Assembly (NCBI GenBank): GCA_003551435.1
Contig: PUMQ01000004.1
Location: 1-58,525, forward strand
Direction: 5' to 3'
DNA length: 58,525 bases
Source: Candidatus Nealsonbacteria bacterium
GTDB taxonomy: Bacteria; Patescibacteriota; Minisyncoccia; Minisyncoccales; PWPS01
Below, piece by piece: positions 16,617-43,681 of the stretch. Each line of letters begins with the position of its first letter. Positions within the stretch are counted from its first letter, which is position 1. The notes beneath the pieces are model-generated. The model saw nothing but the letters and a program-made list of their open reading frames with translations. It was not told the origin of the DNA and made no database searches. The translations under genes were made by a program, and so were the position numbers.

Positions 16617-18698
16617 TTATTCTTCTTTTGAGTTTTCTGTGGGTTTTTTGCTTGAAGTGAAAGTGCAGTCGGGATAGCGGTTGCAAGCGTAGAAAATGTT
16701 ACCTTTTTTTGACCTTCTTTTTACCACATCTCCCTCTTTGCACTCCGGGCACTTGATGTCCAAATCATCTTCAATGGATTTTATATTCTTACACTCCGGG
16801 TAGTTACTGCATCCGTAAAACTTTCCGAACTTGCTCTGCTTGAGCTGCATCTTCTTGCCGCACTTATCGCAAACCACATCATCTTCATTTTCTTCTTTAT
16901 CTCCGTTTAACGGTTTTGTGTTTTTACAGTCGGGGAAGTTTTTACAGGCGATAAATTTCCCGTATTTTCCGAGCTTTATCGCCATTTCCCCGCCACATTT
17001 TTCACATTTTTCCTCTGTTTTTTCTTCTTGCATAATATCTTCTTTTTTAATTTCTAATTCTTTTTCTTTTATTTTTTTATCAAAATCATCGTAAAAATCT
17101 TTTATTATATTCCGCCACTCTTTTTCTCCTTGTGCAATTCCGTCCAAATCTTCTTCCATTTTAGCGGTAAATTTGAGATCTACAATAGAAGGAAAGTGTT
17201 TTAAAAGAAGATTGCTCACGATTCTTCCTATTTCGGTTGGCTTAAGGCTTCTTTTTTCTATTTTTTCGATATAGTTTCTTTGGTAGAGGGTGGAGAGAAT
17301 GGGCGCGTAAGTGGAAGGCCTTCCTATTCCGTGCTTTTCCATTTCTTTTATAAGGGTCGCTTCTGTAAACCTTGCCGGGGGCTTAGTAAAGTGTTGGTTT
17401 GCTTCAATTTTTTTTGCGGTCAGTTTTTCTTCTTTTTCTATTAAAGGAAGTTCGTTTTCTTCAAACTTTACCGGGTACACCTTGGTAAAGCCGTCAAAAC
17501 GCATCACTGATCCGGAAGAAGAGAGAGTATAGCTGTTTTCTTTTTTTGCTTCCACTTCTATATTCGTAGAGTAAAACACGGCGTCGCTCATCAGGCAGGC
17601 CGTAAAACGTCTCCATATTAAATCATAGAGCTTTGCCTCTTCTTTTTTCAGATTACCGGCTTTTTGTGGGGAAGTTTCAAGAGAAGTCGGCCTTACAGCT
17701 TCGTGCGCTTCTTGTGTTTTTCCTTTTGCCGCAAATGTTCTTTCTTTATGGTATTTTTCTCCGAAGTTTTCCTTGATGTATTTCTCTCCCGCCTTTTTTG
17801 CTTCAAGAGAAAGATGGAGAGAGTCGGTGCGGTGGTAAGTAATTAATCCTTTTTCGTACAAGGATTGGGCTATACCCATTGTAAAACGAGACGGAAAACG
17901 CAACCTTTTAAAGGCTTCTTGCTGCAGTGTGCTGGTTGTAAAAGGGGGGAGCGGACGGCGTTTTTTTTCTTTTTGCTCTATTGACTTTACGGCAAAAGAT
18001 GCTTTTTCCAACTCTTCTTTTATTCCTTCCGCCTCTTCTTTTTCTTTTATCTCAAGTTTGCTGATCTTTTTCCCGTTTTTTTCTTTAAGGACAGCCGTGA
18101 ATTCTCCGTTTGCACAAGAAAGAAGAGCGGAAACACTCCAGTACTCATCCGCCCTAAAGGCTTCTATTTCTTTTTCCCTTTCGGTAACTATCCGCAAAGC
18201 GGCCGACTGTACTCTTCCGGCAGAGAGTCCCCTTACCACCTTTTTCCAGAGAAGAGGAGAAAGTTTGTACCCCACCAGCCTGTCTAAAACCCTCCGTGCT
18301 TGCTGGGCGTTTACCAGATTGACATCAATAGATCCGGGATTTTTTACCGCCTCTTCCACCGCTTTTTTAGTGATTTCGTTAAAAACCACTCTCTTGTAGT
18401 TTTCCAATCCCAGCGCTTGGACAAGGTGGTAAGAAATGGCCTCTCCCTCTCTGTCAGGGTCGGTGGCAAGATATACCTCGTCCGCTTTTTTTACAGCTTC
18501 TTTTAAGGGCTTTATATTCTTTCTGGATTTCAGGGGAATAACATATTGGGGCTCAAAATTGTTTTCCACGTCGATTCCCAGCTTACTTTTGGGAAGATCG
18601 CGAATATGCCCGCCGGAGGCGAGCACTTTGTAATTATTTCCCAAGAACTTTTCTAGAGTTTTTGTTTTTGTCGGGCTTTCCACCAGTACTAATTTCAT
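16617..18698 (-). CDS. topA: DNA topoisomerase I
   Basis: TOPRIM start MKLVLVESPTKTKTLEKFLG, DPDREGEAI, the active-site region ITYHRTDS, and C-terminal CxxC zinc-ribbon repeats. ATG 18698 is preferred over 18719. Confidence 0.95.
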   Translation of the reverse strand: MKLVLVESPTKTKTLEKFLGNNYKVLASGGHIRDLPKSKLGIDVENNFEPQYVIPLKSRKNIKPLKEAVKKADEVYLATDPDREGEAISYHLVQALGLENYKRVVFNEITKKAVEEAVKNPGSIDVNLVNAQQARRVLDRLVGYKLSPLLWKKVVRGLSAGRVQSAALRIVTEREKEIEAFRADEYWSVSALLSCANGEFTAVLKEKNGKKISKLEIKEKEEAEGIKEELEKASFAVKSIEQKEKKRRPLPPFTTSTLQQEAFKRLRFPSRFTMGIAQSLYEKGLITYHRTDSLHLSLEAKKAGEKYIKENFGEKYHKERTFAAKGKTQEAHEAVRPTSLETSPQKAGNLKKEEAKLYDLIWRRFTACLMSDAVFYSTNIEVEAKKENSYTLSSSGSVMRFDGFTKVYPVKFEENELPLIEKEEKLTAKKIEANQHFTKPPARFTEATLIKEMEKHGIGRPSTYAPILSTLYQRNYIEKIEKRSLKPTEIGRIVSNLLLKHFPSIVDLKFTAKMEEDLDGIAQGEKEWRNIIKDFYDDFDKKIKEKELEIKKEDIMQEEKTEEKCEKCGGEMAIKLGKYGKFIACKNFPDCKNTKPLNGDKEENEDDVVCDKCGKKMQLKQSKFGKFYGCSNYPECKNIKSIEDDLDIKCPECKEGDVVKRRSKKGNIFYACNRYPDCTFTSSKKPTENSKEE

Positions 18699-18773
18699 GT
18701 CAGAGGAAGAATAACACAAAAAAAGAAAAGGAGAAAGGGGCCTAACCGCCTACACCGATACCGGGTGTCGGGG

Positions 18774-18801
18774 TTGACAAAGTAGGAAAATGTAATATAA
18801 T
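18774..18801 (+). promoter_or_regulatory. Consensus promoter (TTGACA-N16-TATAAT) facing away from topA
   Basis: TTGACA at 18774-18779 and TATAAT at 18796-18801 on the + strand. The region up to the 3' end of pth contains no + strand ORF. Confidence 0.65.
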
Positions 18802-18807
18802 ATAAGT

Positions 18808-19033
18808 GTTCTTTAAAATCCCTTCGGGTTATCTGCGAGTGGCTTATTGTTTTTCTGCACGTATCTTTTGATCTTGCAGTTACAAAATCCCTCCTTTTTT
18901 TATTGGGAAGGAAGAGCGATTTATTCAATCTTCCTTTCCTTAAGCCGGTGTCCGTAACGGATACTTTCCGTCTTTCGGCCTGTAATCAGGTTTGAAGGCC
19001 GGAGCTCGCAGGTAGCCCAAAGGGATTTTTATT
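18808..19033 (+). ncRNA. Candidate structured ncRNA (~225 nt), family unassigned
   Basis: It has its own promoter. A 22-bp closing helix forms between 18815-18822/19022-19029 (8 bp) and 18826-18839/19005-19018 (14 bp). That helix includes two G.U pairs that would be C.A mismatches on the - strand. Internal helices: 18841-46/18941-46, 18855-59/18875-79, 18906-14/18930-39, 18948-64 and 18977-92. The 3' end is a U-run (19026-19035). Confidence 0.55.
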
Positions 19034-19690
19034 TTACTCGGGCTGGTTTTTTTCTTCCTCCAGATTAATTGTTTTTGCCGATATCTCCGAAAGAACAGCA
19101 TTTTTCAACTCTTCGGCCGCTTTCTCTTCAACTTTTTTTGTACTTGCCGGCAAACTTTTTAAAACAAAGTCTATCGCTTTTTCGTTTTTTCCTTTCTTTT
19201 CCGCTCTCTTACGGATTCCCACCCGCAATCGGACGAACTTTTTCGTTCTCAGCGATTTTATAACCGAAGCTACTCCCTTGTGCCCGGCGCTTCCCCGGGA
19301 AAAAGAAAAACGCAAAGTACCCAAAAAAAGATCACTGTCGTCGTGAACCAAAATCAATCTCTCAGGAGGAAGGCAAAACCTTTCCAGCGCCTTTCTTATC
19401 GCTTCCCCGGAAAGATTCATAAAAGTTAAAGGAAGAAGAAGGGCTACTCTTTTTCCTTCTATCTCTCCCTTTGAAACAAAAGATCTCAGGGTGTTGTCTT
19501 TAGAAAAGTCGGGAAGGGAAGATATCTCTCTTAGGCGCGAAACGATACGAAAACCGGCGTTGTGAGCCGTTTTTTTATAATCTTCTCCCGGGTTTCCAAG
19601 ACCGACAACAAGGTAATCAACGTTAGGCTCCTTCTTTTCTTCTCTTTTCTTAAATAAATTTCTAAACATGGAAAACAACTTGAAATTCAT
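19034..19690 (-). CDS. pth: Peptidyl-tRNA hydrolase
   Basis: YLVVGLGNPGEDYKKTAHNAGF, VHDD.DL..G..R, GSAGHKG. The start is ATG 19690 or 19669; the track's 19783 start overlaps lepB. Confidence 0.85.
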   Translation of the reverse strand: MNFKLFSMFRNLFKKREEKKEPNVDYLVVGLGNPGEDYKKTAHNAGFRIVSRLREISSLPDFSKDNTLRSFVSKGEIEGKRVALLLPLTFMNLSGEAIRKALERFCLPPERLILVHDDSDLFLGTLRFSFSRGSAGHKGVASVIKSLRTKKFVRLRVGIRKRAEKKGKNEKAIDFVLKSLPASTKKVEEKAAEELKNAVLSEISAKTINLEEEKNQPE

Positions 19691-21791: not shown

Positions 21792-22109
21792 ATGGACTGT
21801 TTATTCTGTAAAATAATAAAAAAGGAGATTCCTTCAAAAACGGTTCTTGAAAATGAGAGCGTGATTGTTTTTGAAGATATTAATCCCAAGATGCCGGTTC
21901 ACTTGCTTGTCGTTCCTAAAAAACACATTGCCTCGGTAAATGAAATAAAAGAGGAAGACAAGGAACTTATCGGAGAGCTTTTTCTTACCGCCAAACAGGC
22001 GGCGGAAAAGGTTGGAGTAAAAGACAAAGGATACAAGTTGTCCGTTCATGTTGGAGAAGGAGGAGGGCAGGAAATATTCCACCTCCACATTCACCTTCTT
22101 GGAGGATAA
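21792..22109 (+). CDS. HIT (histidine triad) family protein
   Basis: CLFCKI.., and the histidine triad HLHIHLLGG at the C-terminus. Confidence 0.9.
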   Translation: MDCLFCKIIKKEIPSKTVLENESVIVFEDINPKMPVHLLVVPKKHIASVNEIKEEDKELIGELFLTAKQAAEKVGVKDKGYKLSVHVGEGGGQEIFHLHIHLLGG

Positions 22110-22127
22110 AAATAACAAGTAATCATT

Positions 22128-22346
22128 ATGCCTTTAGAAGTAACAAGAAAAGAAAAAGAAAACAACAGCAGCCTGGTGTACCGTTTTACCCGCTCGGTAA
22201 TCCAGAGCGGAATTATCAGAGAAGCGCGTTCCCGCCGGTTTTTCCAGCGGCCAATGAGTAAAACGGCAAAAAAGCGCGCCGCTTTAAGGAAAATAAGAGC
22301 CAAGGAAGAGTACGAGAAAAAGCTTAAAGCGGGACAGATAAAATAA
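22128..22346 (+). CDS. rpsU: 30S ribosomal protein S21
   Basis: 72 aa, basic: VYRFTRSVIQSGIIREARSRRFFQRP..KKRAALRK resembles S21 (..RRFKR...K.G...E.RRR..YEKP). Confidence 0.75.
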   Translation: MPLEVTRKEKENNSSLVYRFTRSVIQSGIIREARSRRFFQRPMSKTAKKRAALRKIRAKEEYEKKLKAGQIK

Positions 22347-22757
22347 ATGGCGCCGGAGGTAAATAATTTAACCCGTTTTTCCGTCAATGAAAGATTGATT
22401 AGCAAAGCGGCTGAAATTGTTTTAAAAAAAGAGGGGGCGGAAGGTGAAGTCTCGGTGGCATTGGTAGGAGAAAAGAGAATAAGAGAAGCAAATAGAATTT
22501 ACCGCAAAAAAGACAAGGTAACGGACGTTCTTTCTTTTTTTTACAGCGAGAAAGGGTTTTTGGGAGAAGTGGTTCTTTGTCCTTTGAAGATTAAGAAAAA
22601 CTCCAAAAAGGGCGGTTTTACAAAAGAGATTTGTCGTGTTACTATACACGGAGTGCTTCATCTTCTGGGATACGAAGATACTACAAAAAAAAGTAAAGAG
22701 GAAATGGAAGAGAAAACAAACCGTTATTTGAAAATAATTTATAAAGAGGTAAAATAG
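22347..22757 (+). CDS. ybeY: rRNA maturation endoribonuclease YbeY
   Basis: TDVLSF, and the HGVLHLLGYED metal-binding motif near the C-terminus. Starts directly at the rpsU stop. Confidence 0.85.
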   Translation: MAPEVNNLTRFSVNERLISKAAEIVLKKEGAEGEVSVALVGEKRIREANRIYRKKDKVTDVLSFFYSEKGFLGEVVLCPLKIKKNSKKGGFTKEICRVTIHGVLHLLGYEDTTKKSKEEMEEKTNRYLKIIYKEVK

Positions 22758-30010: not shown

Positions 30011-31435
30011 ATGACTTTTTCCAAAGCGGTCTTCTTTTTTTCTTTGTCTTTTATTCTCGGGGTGTTTTTTGCTCCGGTGAGCCTTTTTTTCGGCCTTCTG
30101 TCCGTTTTTTCTTTTTACTGCCTCTCTCGCAGGCTCGTGGTTGCCGTTTTTTGCATGGTTTTCTTTCTTTTTGGCGCTTTTTCTTTCCACTCTTTTCTTT
30201 ACAACATCCCTTCTTCTGTAGAAAGCCCGGTTTACGGGGTGGTAAAAGAAGAACCGGTTCTAAGAGACAATTCCACGAGAGTTGTTTTTGAACATGAAGA
30301 AGGAAGAGCGCTTTTATATACCGAGTACTACGCGGATTACCGGTACGGGGACGTGCTTAAAACAAAAGGAGACTTTGTTAAGCCCGAGCCGGAAGAGTAT
30401 GCCAACTACCTTAAAAAAGAGGGGATATACCATCTCTCTTTTTTTCCGGAAATAGAAAAAAAGGGAAGTAAGGGAAGCGCTTTTTATAGAGCGCTCTTTT
30501 CTTTAAAAGAGATGGGAAGAAGAAACCTTCAAAGATCTATTCCTCCTCCCCAGCTTTTCCTTTCAGAGGCGATGGTTTTGGGAGAAAGAGATTCTTTTAC
30601 GCAGGACTTTAGCGAAAAGCTGAGCATTACTGGAACCCGCCATATTACCGCTATTTCCGGAATGCACATTGTTATCATTTCCGCTATGCTTTTTTATCTT
30701 TTTCTTTTTTTCAACTTGAAAAAAAGATGGGCGGCTCTTTTTTCTCTCTTTTTCATTTTCCTTTTTATTTTTTTTGTAGGTGTTCCCGCTTCGGCATTGA
30801 GAGCCGGAATAATGGGAGGAGCTCTTCTTTTGTCAAATGTTTTTTACAGGAAAACGGATACTTTTCGCCTTCTTTCCATGGCCGCGGCAGTAATGCTTGT
30901 TTTTAACCCTCTCCTTTTGCACTACGACTTGGGTTTCCAACTCTCATTTTTGGCGGTTTTGGGAATTATTTTTTTGCACCGCCCCGCAAAAAATCTTCTT
31001 TGCGGAATTAGATTCCCGGAGACCCGGCTTCCGGAACAGCGCCGTTTTGTAGAAATGATAAATAGATTTTTTGGGAAAAACGAAAGGATTGCGGACCTTG
31101 TTGCTGTAACTCTCGGAGCGCAGATTTTTGTTTTTCCCCTTATTTTGTACAATTTCGGGCACGTTTCTCTGGTTTCCGTGCCGGCAAATGTCCTTATTGT
31201 CCCCCTCCTCCCTTTTATTATGGTCTTCGGATTTTTAACCGCTCTTACGGGGTTTGTATTGTTTTCTTTTCCTTTGTATCTTTTCCTTTCTTTTGTTCTT
31301 TTTGTGGTTGATATTTTCTATGTTTTTCCTTTTTCGGCGGTTTTTATAGAAAACGTTCCTTTTTCTTTTATTTTCCTTTTTTACGCTCTGCTCTTCTACA
31401 AAATCTACGCGCTACAATCCCGGAACCCACAATAA
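30011..31435 (+). CDS. comEC: ComEC/Rec2 family competence channel protein (no C-terminal metallo-beta-lactamase domain)
   Basis: N-terminal OB/DUF4131-like region, then the polytopic domain with ITGTRHITAISGMHIVII (ComEC signature G..H..AISG.H). Confidence 0.8.
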   Translation: MTFSKAVFFFSLSFILGVFFAPVSLFFGLLSVFSFYCLSRRLVVAVFCMVFFLFGAFSFHSFLYNIPSSVESPVYGVVKEEPVLRDNSTRVVFEHEEGRALLYTEYYADYRYGDVLKTKGDFVKPEPEEYANYLKKEGIYHLSFFPEIEKKGSKGSAFYRALFSLKEMGRRNLQRSIPPPQLFLSEAMVLGERDSFTQDFSEKLSITGTRHITAISGMHIVIISAMLFYLFLFFNLKKRWAALFSLFFIFLFIFFVGVPASALRAGIMGGALLLSNVFYRKTDTFRLLSMAAAVMLVFNPLLLHYDLGFQLSFLAVLGIIFLHRPAKNLLCGIRFPETRLPEQRRFVEMINRFFGKNERIADLVAVTLGAQIFVFPLILYNFGHVSLVSVPANVLIVPLLPFIMVFGFLTALTGFVLFSFPLYLFLSFVLFVVDIFYVFPFSAVFIENVPFSFIFLFYALLFYKIYALQSRNPQ

Positions 31436-31438
31436 ATT

Positions 31439-31513
31439 TGCGAAGGTCGGACCTTCGCAAGTTCTCTGCAAGTTTGCAAAGGTCTGCAAATTTGCGAAGG
31501 TCGGACCTTCGCA
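31439..31513. repeat. Palindromic repeat cluster: two perfect TGCGAAGGTCGGACCTTCGCA copies flanking a truncated copy
   Basis: Perfect copies at 31439-31459 and 31493-31513. The truncated copy TTGCAAAGGTCTGCAA is at 31474-31489. GATTTT follows. The cluster starts 4 nt after the comEC stop. Confidence 0.9.
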
Positions 31514-31591
31514 GATTTTGTTGTATTTGTTTTTTTAAAGGAAAGTGATACTATGAAAGGTAAGAGAGTATTTTTAATCTTTTAAAACACT

Positions 31592-43317: not shown

Positions 43318-43345
43318 ATTATATTAATATTTGAAAACTTGTCAA
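43318..43345 (-). promoter_or_regulatory. Consensus promoter (TTGACA-N16-TATAAT) for the leader and the 42580-43038 gene
   Basis: -35 at 43345-43340 and -10 at 43323-43318 on the - strand. Confidence 0.7.
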
Positions 43346-43356
43346 GAGCGAGGCGT

Positions 43357-43385
43357 TTGACAAAAATTATTAAATAGATTATATT
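43357..43385 (+). promoter_or_regulatory. Divergent promoter (TTGACA-N17-TATATT) for the small-gene operon at 43433-44047
   Basis: TTGACA at 43357-62 and TATATT at 43380-85. Its -35 lies 11 nt from the -35 of the opposing promoter. Confidence 0.65.
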
Positions 43386-43432
43386 CCGCTAACTTTTCAT
43401 TGTTTTTATTCTTTTAAAGGAGGGATTTCGCA

Positions 43433-43681
43433 GTGAAAAGATGTAAAGAGTGTGAAAGGAGGGAAGCGACTCGAGGGCTAAATAATATCAACAACATTGG
43501 AAACCTTGAGTTTTGTCCGAACCCCGAGTGTAGAGTTGCCCACATCGTGGGCATGGGGCCTCCTGAAGAGATGATTCACTCTCTTCCAAAACACGAAGAG
43601 GAAAAGAAGATAAAAAACGCTACCGAAAAAGGGTGTTGGGACAAGATTCTGGAAGCACCGTCTTCCCGGAAAACAAAGTAA
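43433..43681 (+). CDS. Small zinc-ribbon-like protein (82 aa)
   Basis: GTG start 7 nt after AGGAGGG. Cysteine pattern CKEC..(21)..CPNPEC. Confidence 0.5.
   Translation: MKRCKECERREATRGLNNINNIGNLEFCPNPECRVAHIVGMGPPEEMIHSLPKHEEEKKIKNATEKGCWDKILEAPSSRKTK

Follow-up and report, generated by a model that had tools for sequence, protein, structure and literature searches.

A structured RNA between pth and topA of Candidatus Nealsonbacteria carries an invariant anti-Shine-Dalgarno-like block

Introduction

Several bacterial small RNAs (sRNAs) bind Shine-Dalgarno (SD) regions through C-rich loops, for example 6C from M. tuberculosis (PMC6486639), the Rsa RNAs with their UCCC motif (PMC2790875), sX13 from Xanthomonas (PMC3771888) and RNAIII from S. 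aureus (PMC2837412). These RNAs, like RsaE/RoxS, have their own promoter and terminator, expose a C-rich motif complementary to the SD sequence and are conserved within a lineage; they are ~70-120 nt long (RNAIII excepted), are built from two or three simple hairpins, with several motifs in most cases. The OLE RNA of Bacillota is a large (~600 nt), conserved and structured non-coding RNA (ncRNA) with a copy of the CCUCCU of the 16S rRNA 3' tail, and this anti-SD mimic, located in P6, is paired to an SD-like strand and bound by bS21 (PMC12054373). Here we describe an RNA gene that lies between topA and pth on contig PUMQ01000004.1 of Candidatus Nealsonbacteria (Patescibacteria), the whole 58,525-nt stretch of which was analysed and is referred to below as the window. 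The RNA has features of both systems: it has a promoter of its own, is conserved in its lineage and exposes a C-rich motif, and it is large and structured and holds an anti-SD mimic. It differs from the C-rich-loop sRNAs in having a single motif within a 16-nt block, a five-helix fold of 180-230 nt and a 26-bp terminal helix, and from OLE in its smaller size (~200 nt), its occurrence in Patescibacteria and a mimic that is predicted to be unpaired.

More distant likenesses exist to 6S RNA and to type I toxin mRNAs. With 6S RNA the new RNA shares a length of ~180-230 nt, a long closing helix formed from both ends, a strong promoter, a stand-alone gene and a small genome, but it lacks the two-sided central bubble and the coaxial terminal stem. 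With the leaders of type I toxin mRNAs (hok, aapA1) it shares the pairing of 5' and 3' ends and an anti-SD hairpin, and one relative (locus L064) precedes a hydrophobic open reading frame (ORF); unlike those mRNAs, its 13 long forms come without an ORF or an antitoxin RNA, and the RNA itself is the conserved product. The literature searched, on ncRNAs of the Candidate Phyla Radiation (CPR, Patescibacteria), on 6S RNA in the CPR and on sRNAs in metatranscriptomes, held no earlier description of such an RNA, and we regard the element as, almost certainly, a real, structured RNA of a family that has not yet been catalogued.

Results

The RNA gene is preceded by a TTGACA-N16-TATAAT promoter on the + strand, which an earlier note on this DNA, made from the letters alone, had already pointed out. 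The promoter scan found the -35 hexamer TTGACA at 18774-18779 and the -10 hexamer TATAAT at 18796-18801, within the conserved TATAATATAAT, matching the sigma-70 consensus at 12 of 12 positions (18774-18801, +), and the spacing predicts that transcription starts at ~18807-18810. The predicted transcript of ~225 nt (approximately 18808-19036, +) is, as the earlier note had it, free of ORFs and antisense to both neighbours, topA and pth being encoded on the - strand; no + strand ORF of at least 40 aa occurs in the ~225 nt downstream of the promoter. Small ORFs inside the RNA, such as one of 30 codons that begins with UUG at 18902, were rejected as coding candidates, as they cross a variable hairpin and are not conserved. 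Folding of the window RNA yielded -101.8 kcal/mol compared to -54.3 +/- 4.3 kcal/mol for 200 dinucleotide shuffles (z = -11.1), none of which folded as well, and the reverse complement folded at -81.3 kcal/mol (z = -7.8).

The nearest relatives by topA (70-76% identity) are metagenome-assembled genomes (MAGs) that carry the labels Candidatus Nealsonbacteria, Paceibacterota or Patescibacteria; soda-lake sediments are the source of many. Using nhmmer, the intergenic sequence was recovered in six of the topA relatives, upstream of topA and on the opposite strand. A metagenome scan with a pattern derived from the alignment gave eight more contigs, three of which contributed new sequences, and further contigs were obtained via pth homologues and thus picked by protein instead of by the RNA motif. 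The resulting alignment (A5) comprises 13 distinct long-form (type-N) sequences of 179-233 nt, and at every locus that shows both genes the RNA occupies the pth-topA spacer, convergent with pth. A perfect TTGACA-N16/17-TATAAT promoter is located 0-36 nt ahead of the modelled RNA in all 13 loci and every helix covaries, so the comparison of related pth-topA spacers that the earlier note had proposed as a check did return conserved homologues.

In a first alignment of seven sequences, made with MAFFT only and evaluated with RNAalifold, 19 of 50 base pairs showed compensatory changes. In the alignment of 13 sequences, 96.0% of the cells are standard pairs and 37 of 55 pairs have changed on both sides, compared to 6-13 when the 3' partners were slid by 1-3 columns, bearing in mind that this alignment was fitted to the model, which somewhat favours the count; none of 500 column shuffles reached the observed covariation values. 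Because the MAFFT-only result and the slid controls agree, we consider the signal genuine despite the fitted alignment. The covariance model R1 scored the long forms at 91-183 bits on the RNA strand (the window RNA at 173.6 bits) and at 35-49 bits on the reverse strand where such matches were listed (39 bits for the window), and these strand scores, together with conserved G.U pairs, fix the + strand as the RNA strand. When R1 was run over 80 topA loci, only its seven training sequences scored high, and matches of 26 bits were returned both for L015, a real short form (see below), and for L043, a plain hairpin; scores of this size therefore do not prove homology. R1 also made weak matches, on both strands, to a long intergenic hairpin elsewhere in the window (31431-31521; -54 kcal/mol, z -8.5), which contains two copies of the palindromic unit UUUGCGAAGGUCGGACCUUCGCA and probably represents a palindromic repeat or a terminator that acts in both directions.

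The consensus fold is a multibranch structure in which P1 closes a junction with P2, P4 and P5, while P2 encloses a linker, P3, an invariant block and, in some sequences, a variable hairpin; 0-1 nucleotides are unpaired on the 3' side of the junction. P1 pairs the two ends of the transcript (18814-18840 with 19004-19030) over 26 bp, with compensatory changes in 16 of 26 pairs and 95.5% of cells paired. The earlier note had described this pairing as 22 bp interrupted by a 3x3 internal loop; the pairing stands and is longer, whereas the supposed loop is mostly paired (UU/AA). In the window, P1 consists of 10 bp, one C.A mismatch and 14 bp, to which the family model adds two more pairs. The strand-specific G.U pairs of the earlier note likewise hold in kind and not in number: P1 has three U.G pairs instead of two, and P4 and P5 together have five more G.U or U.G pairs, all of which would be A.C on the - strand. 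The expectation of at least five helices inside the closing stem was borne out by P2, P3, the variable hairpin, P4 and P5.

P2 joins GGCU (18841-18844) to AGCC (18943-18946), with three of four pairs compensatory and all cells paired, and is followed by a single-stranded linker (18845-18854) that is U-rich in all homologues and leads to hairpin P3 (18855-18879; five of five modelled pairs compensatory). In the alignments, only the window, L004, L006 and L086 have the variable hairpin P3a (18905-18939). In L004 it reads GUGCGGGAUUUGAACCCCGUAC (~2650-2690, -), similar to a tRNA T-arm of the GG-UUCGAAUCC type, a likeness that the variable hairpins of the window, L006 and L086 do not share. Hairpin P4 (18947-18965) has a G-N-A-A-N loop, a first pair that is G.U in 13 of 13 sequences, compensatory changes in three of seven pairs and pairing in 100% of cells. 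In L089 the loop is GAAA, a GNRA tetraloop, suggestive of a tertiary contact; a pseudoknot of this loop was considered and rejected, as complements (GUUAC or AUUGC) occur nearby in some sequences at inconsistent positions. Hairpin P5 (18967-19003), built of two segments with the loop CUG-UAAU-CAG, is compensatory in 10 of 13 pairs, and across homologues its loop reads UAAU or UUAU.

The most informative feature of the RNA, absent from the earlier note, is a single-stranded block of 16 nt, AAAAUCCCUCCUUUUU (18884-18899, +), that is identical in 13 of 13 sequences. It is the most constrained element of the RNA and is unchanged both in the loci fetched by protein and in L089, whose P1 sequence largely differs. 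By partition function, its core CCCUCC (18889-18894) has a probability of being unpaired of 0.98 in the window and of 0.90-1.0 across the long forms, compared to a mean of 0.2-0.33 over the whole RNA; in all, the probability is 0.90-1.0 in 18 of 20 folded sequences. Pairing of the A-run with the U-run of the block might close a weak A-U stem around UCCCUCC, which would then be a 7-nt loop. The block is complementary to AAAAAGGAGGGAUUUU, a strong, extended SD sequence. It also resembles the canonical 16S rRNA 3' end, GAUCACCUCCUUUCU in most bacteria, of which it matches AUC-CCUCCUUU except for one missing base; neither the window nor the fetched loci contain a 16S 3' end of the lineage itself.

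No RNA family of Rfam 15 accounts for the element. A cmscan of the whole window with 4227 Rfam 15 families gave nothing at gathering score, and a scan of 18650-19150 at E <= 10 with permissive filters gave no bacterial RNA family, returning chance matches to eukaryotic long non-coding RNA models and similar; nor did ARAGORN find a tRNA or transfer-messenger RNA (tmRNA) in the window. The Rfam search that the earlier note had asked for thus ended without a clean match, and cmscan and ARAGORN agree with its failure to find motifs of signal recognition particle (SRP) RNA, RNase P RNA or tmRNA and with its doubt about 6S RNA, for which it held a branched structure to be untypical. The known candidates were rejected one by one: 6S RNA (RF00013, RF01685) for lack of a covariance-model match and for the branched junction in place of a rod with a central bubble; SRP RNA for lack of an Rfam match, the only GGAAGGAAG-like stretch lying in the variable hairpin and being absent from most homologues; RNase P RNA likewise, with the P4, CR-I (GAGGAAAGUCC) and CR-V sequences missing from the alignment; and tmRNA, for which neither ARAGORN nor Rfam gave a match. 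The RNA does display a conserved, exposed C-rich motif like that of the C-rich-loop sRNAs, CCCUCC being invariant and predicted to be unpaired, and no Rfam 15 covariance model for RsaE, 6C, sX13 or another sRNA family matched it; the OLE model gave no match in the Rfam 15 scans either. As a side observation, the window (1-58525) is a long stretch without a recognised RNA gene.

The spacer of 335 nt that contains the candidate RNA gene is bounded by topA (16617-18698, -; Toprim, Topoisom_bac and zinc-ribbon domains) and pth (19034-19690, -; Pept_tRNA_hydro domain). A U-run, UUUUUAUUUUA (19026-19036, +), follows P1, as the earlier note had seen, and overlaps the stop codon of pth (19034-19036). 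The terminator scan of 18400-19400 found no canonical terminator hairpin: the window RNA lacks a separate one because pth abuts the RNA, and its 3' end is therefore uncertain, either at this U-run or at a second one (19047-19053). Most long-form homologues have a separate canonical terminator hairpin 5-25 nt past P1, and in the 13 long-form loci there is no ORF between RNA and terminator and none after the RNA on its strand. The RNA is thus a stand-alone gene that runs from promoter to terminator and not a leader.

Six other patescibacterial loci (L012, L014, L015, L021, L026 and L064) each encode a shorter RNA (90-145 nt), which runs opposite to pth/topA. They lie ~50-260 nt downstream of pth in L012, L015, L021 and L064 and ~300 nt downstream in L026, pth being out of view in L014. 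Five of them fold far better than their shuffles (z -5.3 to -9.0), L026 less so (z -2.1). The four of 127-144 nt (L012, L014, L015, L064) form a three-way structure in which a long P1 is joined by a P5-like hairpin and by a P2 of the GGC/GCC type with a hairpin inside it, and covary among themselves in 22 of 35 pairs; L021 and L026 (~90-96 nt) are single long hairpins. A TTGACA promoter of their own precedes the RNAs of L012, L015 and L064, perfect in L064, and none was scored for L014, L021 and L026 in the promoter scan; L012 and L015 end in U-run terminators with no ORF shown ahead of them. All six short forms carry CCCUCC in a loop, predicted to be unpaired in five and ambiguous in L012 (0.67), on presenting stems that differ in sequence (GGUUA/UAACC, GGUUA/UAGCC, AGAGAC/GUCUCU, GCGAAG/CUUCGC and CGGGA/UCCCG). 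Long and short forms have the junction sequence AG-Y-GGC...GCC in common. A second model, R2, made from four short forms, finds L021 (E 0.0016), and an Rfam scan of four short-form loci at E <= 1 gave nothing relevant. We consider it probable, if not proven, that long and short forms are homologous.

The RNA was not found near pth in L008, L009 and L020. Nor did nine more pth loci (L095-L105), which have another synteny (pth-mfd, pth-rpsF or pth/S1), contain a C-loop RNA; its presence beside pth is thus not universal. In L100-L102 (2717-4009), from Patescibacteria of Hainich groundwater, a convergent gene for a 430-aa ribosomal protein S1 follows pth in place of the RNA. The organism labels of some records look unreliable: 'binchicken' MAG records L011, L015, L021, L030 and L039 are titled 'uncultured Gammaproteobacteria' or 'Saccharibacteria', whereas topA identity and gene order place them with Patescibacteria/Paceibacteria.

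Finally, we looked for sites to which the block could pair. Apart from the RNA gene, the window contains a single exact 13-nt complement, AAAGGAGGGAUUU (43416-43428, +), which is a candidate trans target and a weak lead; it coincides with the ribosome-binding site of an ORF at 43433-43681, and the predicted duplex has an energy of -19.8 kcal/mol. This ORF encodes 82 aa with two CxxC-like pairs and has a TTGACA...TATATT promoter of its own (region 43330-43681). It has no Pfam domain and, among 5.8 billion proteins, no homologue except a 99%-identical entry (P0121). In L064 (788-1072, -), the RNA runs without an intervening terminator straight into a 44-aa hydrophobic ORF, MKTFLICCGVIWFMLFCGGLLVMIGAIRGWRWVGCKPYNQDKDL, whose SD sequence GGGAGGGAU is complementary to the loop AUCCCUCCU of the same RNA, and a terminator shared with pth comes after the ORF; this layout resembles a type I toxin-like arrangement or that of a cis-regulated small protein. 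An ORF of ~167-168 aa that is convergent with topA was also seen in L007 (3570-4076, -), L093 (5543-5648) and L089 (5499-5621), with a GGDEF domain by Pfam in L093, no Pfam match in L089 and a reading by eye in L007, where its ribosome-binding site, AAAGGAGGGAUU, is a 12-nt complement of the block.

The lineage itself seems to make rare use of SD sites. About 2 of 17 called gene starts have one (L089, L091, L093), and the positional profile of 147 ORF starts shows a weak SD peak at -14 to -10; we relied on these two measures since SD counts from ORF heuristics were noisy, with internal starts being picked. There is no SD at the topA start (18698), where the leader CUUUCUCCUUUUCUUUUUUUGUGUUAUUCUUCCUCUGAC-AUG is rich in pyrimidines, and none at rpsU; very strong AAAGGAGG(G) sites occur at a few genes. 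For SD-led leaders of these genomes, the predicted pairing with the block is stronger by 3.4-6.3 kcal/mol than that with a canonical 16S tail. With SD sites being rare, strong ones form a special class, and an RNA that bears CCUCC would therefore address a small set of mRNAs.

Discussion

The explanation that we favour, at a confidence approaching but not reaching an even chance, is an independently transcribed, highly structured sRNA whose anti-SD-like block pairs with ribosome-binding sites. Transcription would start at the sigma-70-type promoter ~6 nt ahead of P1, and a rigid scaffold would display the block. The block would then pair with a restricted group of mRNAs at their G-rich ribosome-binding sites (AAAGGAGGG...), in competition with the 16S rRNA tail, and thereby alter the translation or the stability of these mRNAs. 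The RNA would probably be abundant, and since most genes seem to be without an SD, its regulon would be the minority of strongly SD-led genes. The SD behind the L064 RNA, the 13-nt complement in the window and the predicted energies of SD-led leaders speak for such pairing, for which the C-rich-loop sRNAs are the precedent. That the RNA works through SD pairing in particular is a tentative proposal, and several findings weigh against it. The scaffold of 180-230 nt with five helices, a 26-bp closing stem and a GNRA-like loop goes far beyond known seed-pairing sRNAs and looks more like that of a ribonucleoprotein (RNP) or a tertiary-folded RNA; the 16 invariant nucleotides are more than GGAGG pairing needs; the lone exact trans match belongs to an orphan ORF; and GGAGGGA is not clearly enriched over other GGAGGN at start sites. 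In addition, the link between long and short forms, which draws on position, architecture and the CCCUCC loop, receives no help from the models: the long form escapes R2, and R1 scores L015 (E 1e-4) no higher than a plain hairpin.

The excess of invariant nucleotides, which includes the AUC before CCUCC and the U-run after it, speaks for the main rival explanation, in which the block, read as AAAAUC-CCUCCUUUUU, is a decoy of the 16S 3' tail. Such a decoy would bind or sequester a tail-binding factor (bS21, the KH domain of Era, YbeY, S1 or IF3) and tune ribosome maturation or initiation, with the rest of the RNA serving as a protein-binding scaffold, and we regard this as possible though unlikely. 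A scaffold so elaborate and conserved, with a GNRA-like loop in P4, does suggest an RNP, and there is a precedent in P6 of OLE RNA, an anti-SD mimic bound by bS21 (PMC12054373). The genes for bS21 (rpsU, 22128-22346) and the endoribonuclease YbeY (22347-22757) lie ~3 kb downstream of the RNA on its strand, behind HIT (21792-22109, same strand), which follows lepB-hisS; the window, L089, L091 and L093 share the order ybeY - bS21 - HIT - hisS - lepB on one strand with pth and topA on the other. Both bS21 and YbeY act at the 16S 3' end. In lineages with low SD use the 16S tail is known to be handled differently. However, in all lineages the block has a C for A1534 of 16S rRNA (CCCUCC, not CACCUCC), which makes it an imperfect copy unless the lineage's own 16S rRNA differs, the rpsU-ybeY order is widely conserved and 3 kb away, and the arrangement in L064 favours SD pairing over a decoy.

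A role confined to the locus, in which the element would be a bidirectional terminator, a source of transcription interference or a long cis-antisense partner of pth read-through that sets the level of topA (or dprA-folC-topA) without acting in trans, is improbable. It would suit the co-orientation of pth and topA, for which the promoter scan found no consensus topA promoter in the spacer, the position of the RNA, always convergent with pth and abutting it, the good fold of the - strand (z -7.8) and the homologues that have A-run/hairpin/U-run terminators between pth and the RNA. But neither termination nor interference needs five covarying helices, conserved strand-specific G.U pairs, 16 invariant unpaired nucleotides or a perfect promoter in each species. 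Moreover, the partner gene varies: dprA and folC separate the RNA from topA in L015, and L064 has its RNA ~1.4 kb upstream of topA. An intrinsic bidirectional terminator as such was rejected: the element folds over 225 nt into several helices and not into a short GC-rich hairpin with a U-run, it has a promoter of its own, and a separate terminator follows it in most homologues.

The earlier note had left the choice between a divergent housekeeping RNA and a new family. Covariation and the missing Rfam match speak for the new family, and a very divergent 6S, SRP/4.5S, RNase P or tmRNA that escaped the Rfam models in a fast-evolving phylum is, in our estimate, highly improbable. A housekeeping role would agree with the perfect promoter and with conservation this deep in tiny genomes, and none of these RNAs occurs elsewhere in the window, though the window is a fraction of the genome. 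Against this, none of these families matched at E <= 10 with permissive filters, and there is no tRNA-like end; neither the SRP helix-8 motifs nor the P4 and CR-I/CR-V sequences of RNase P occur in the alignment; where 6S RNA is a rod with a two-sided bubble, the consensus here branches at a junction that leaves 0-1 nucleotides unpaired on its 3' side; and the short forms are plain hairpins or three-way junctions of 90-145 nt.

Type I toxin mRNAs typically combine end-to-end pairing with an anti-SD hairpin that keeps the SD silent, and in L064 the RNA leads a hydrophobic ORF of 44 aa, with a match between the SD of the ORF and the RNA loop, but there is very little chance that the window RNA is a remnant or relative of such a leader that has lost its ORF and become non-functional or repurposed, given that 13 of 13 long forms have no ORF before the terminator, that L012 and L015 likewise show none, that no antisense antitoxin was seen, and that strong purifying selection on an RNA without any ORF argues against a remnant.

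Patescibacteria have tiny genomes and few known regulators and cannot be cultured alone, and beyond the universal RNAs we found no described patescibacterial ncRNA in Rfam or in the literature searched. For the RNA field, the element adds a new structured family with two covariance models and ~19 sequences. It is conceivable, if rather unlikely, that several CPR lineages keep a strongly expressed anti-SD copy, on carriers that range from a 90-nt hairpin to a 230-nt five-helix RNA, as a global competitor or decoy that, in genomes most of whose genes have abandoned SD initiation, controls the few SD-led mRNAs or the factors of the 16S 3' end; if true, this would be a translation-control device of a kind not described in any bacterium. 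Were the RNA merely a seed-pairing sRNA, it would still be the first of that kind for the phylum, and a 16-nt block that was kept while the helices around it diverged provides a handle on translation control in Patescibacteria.

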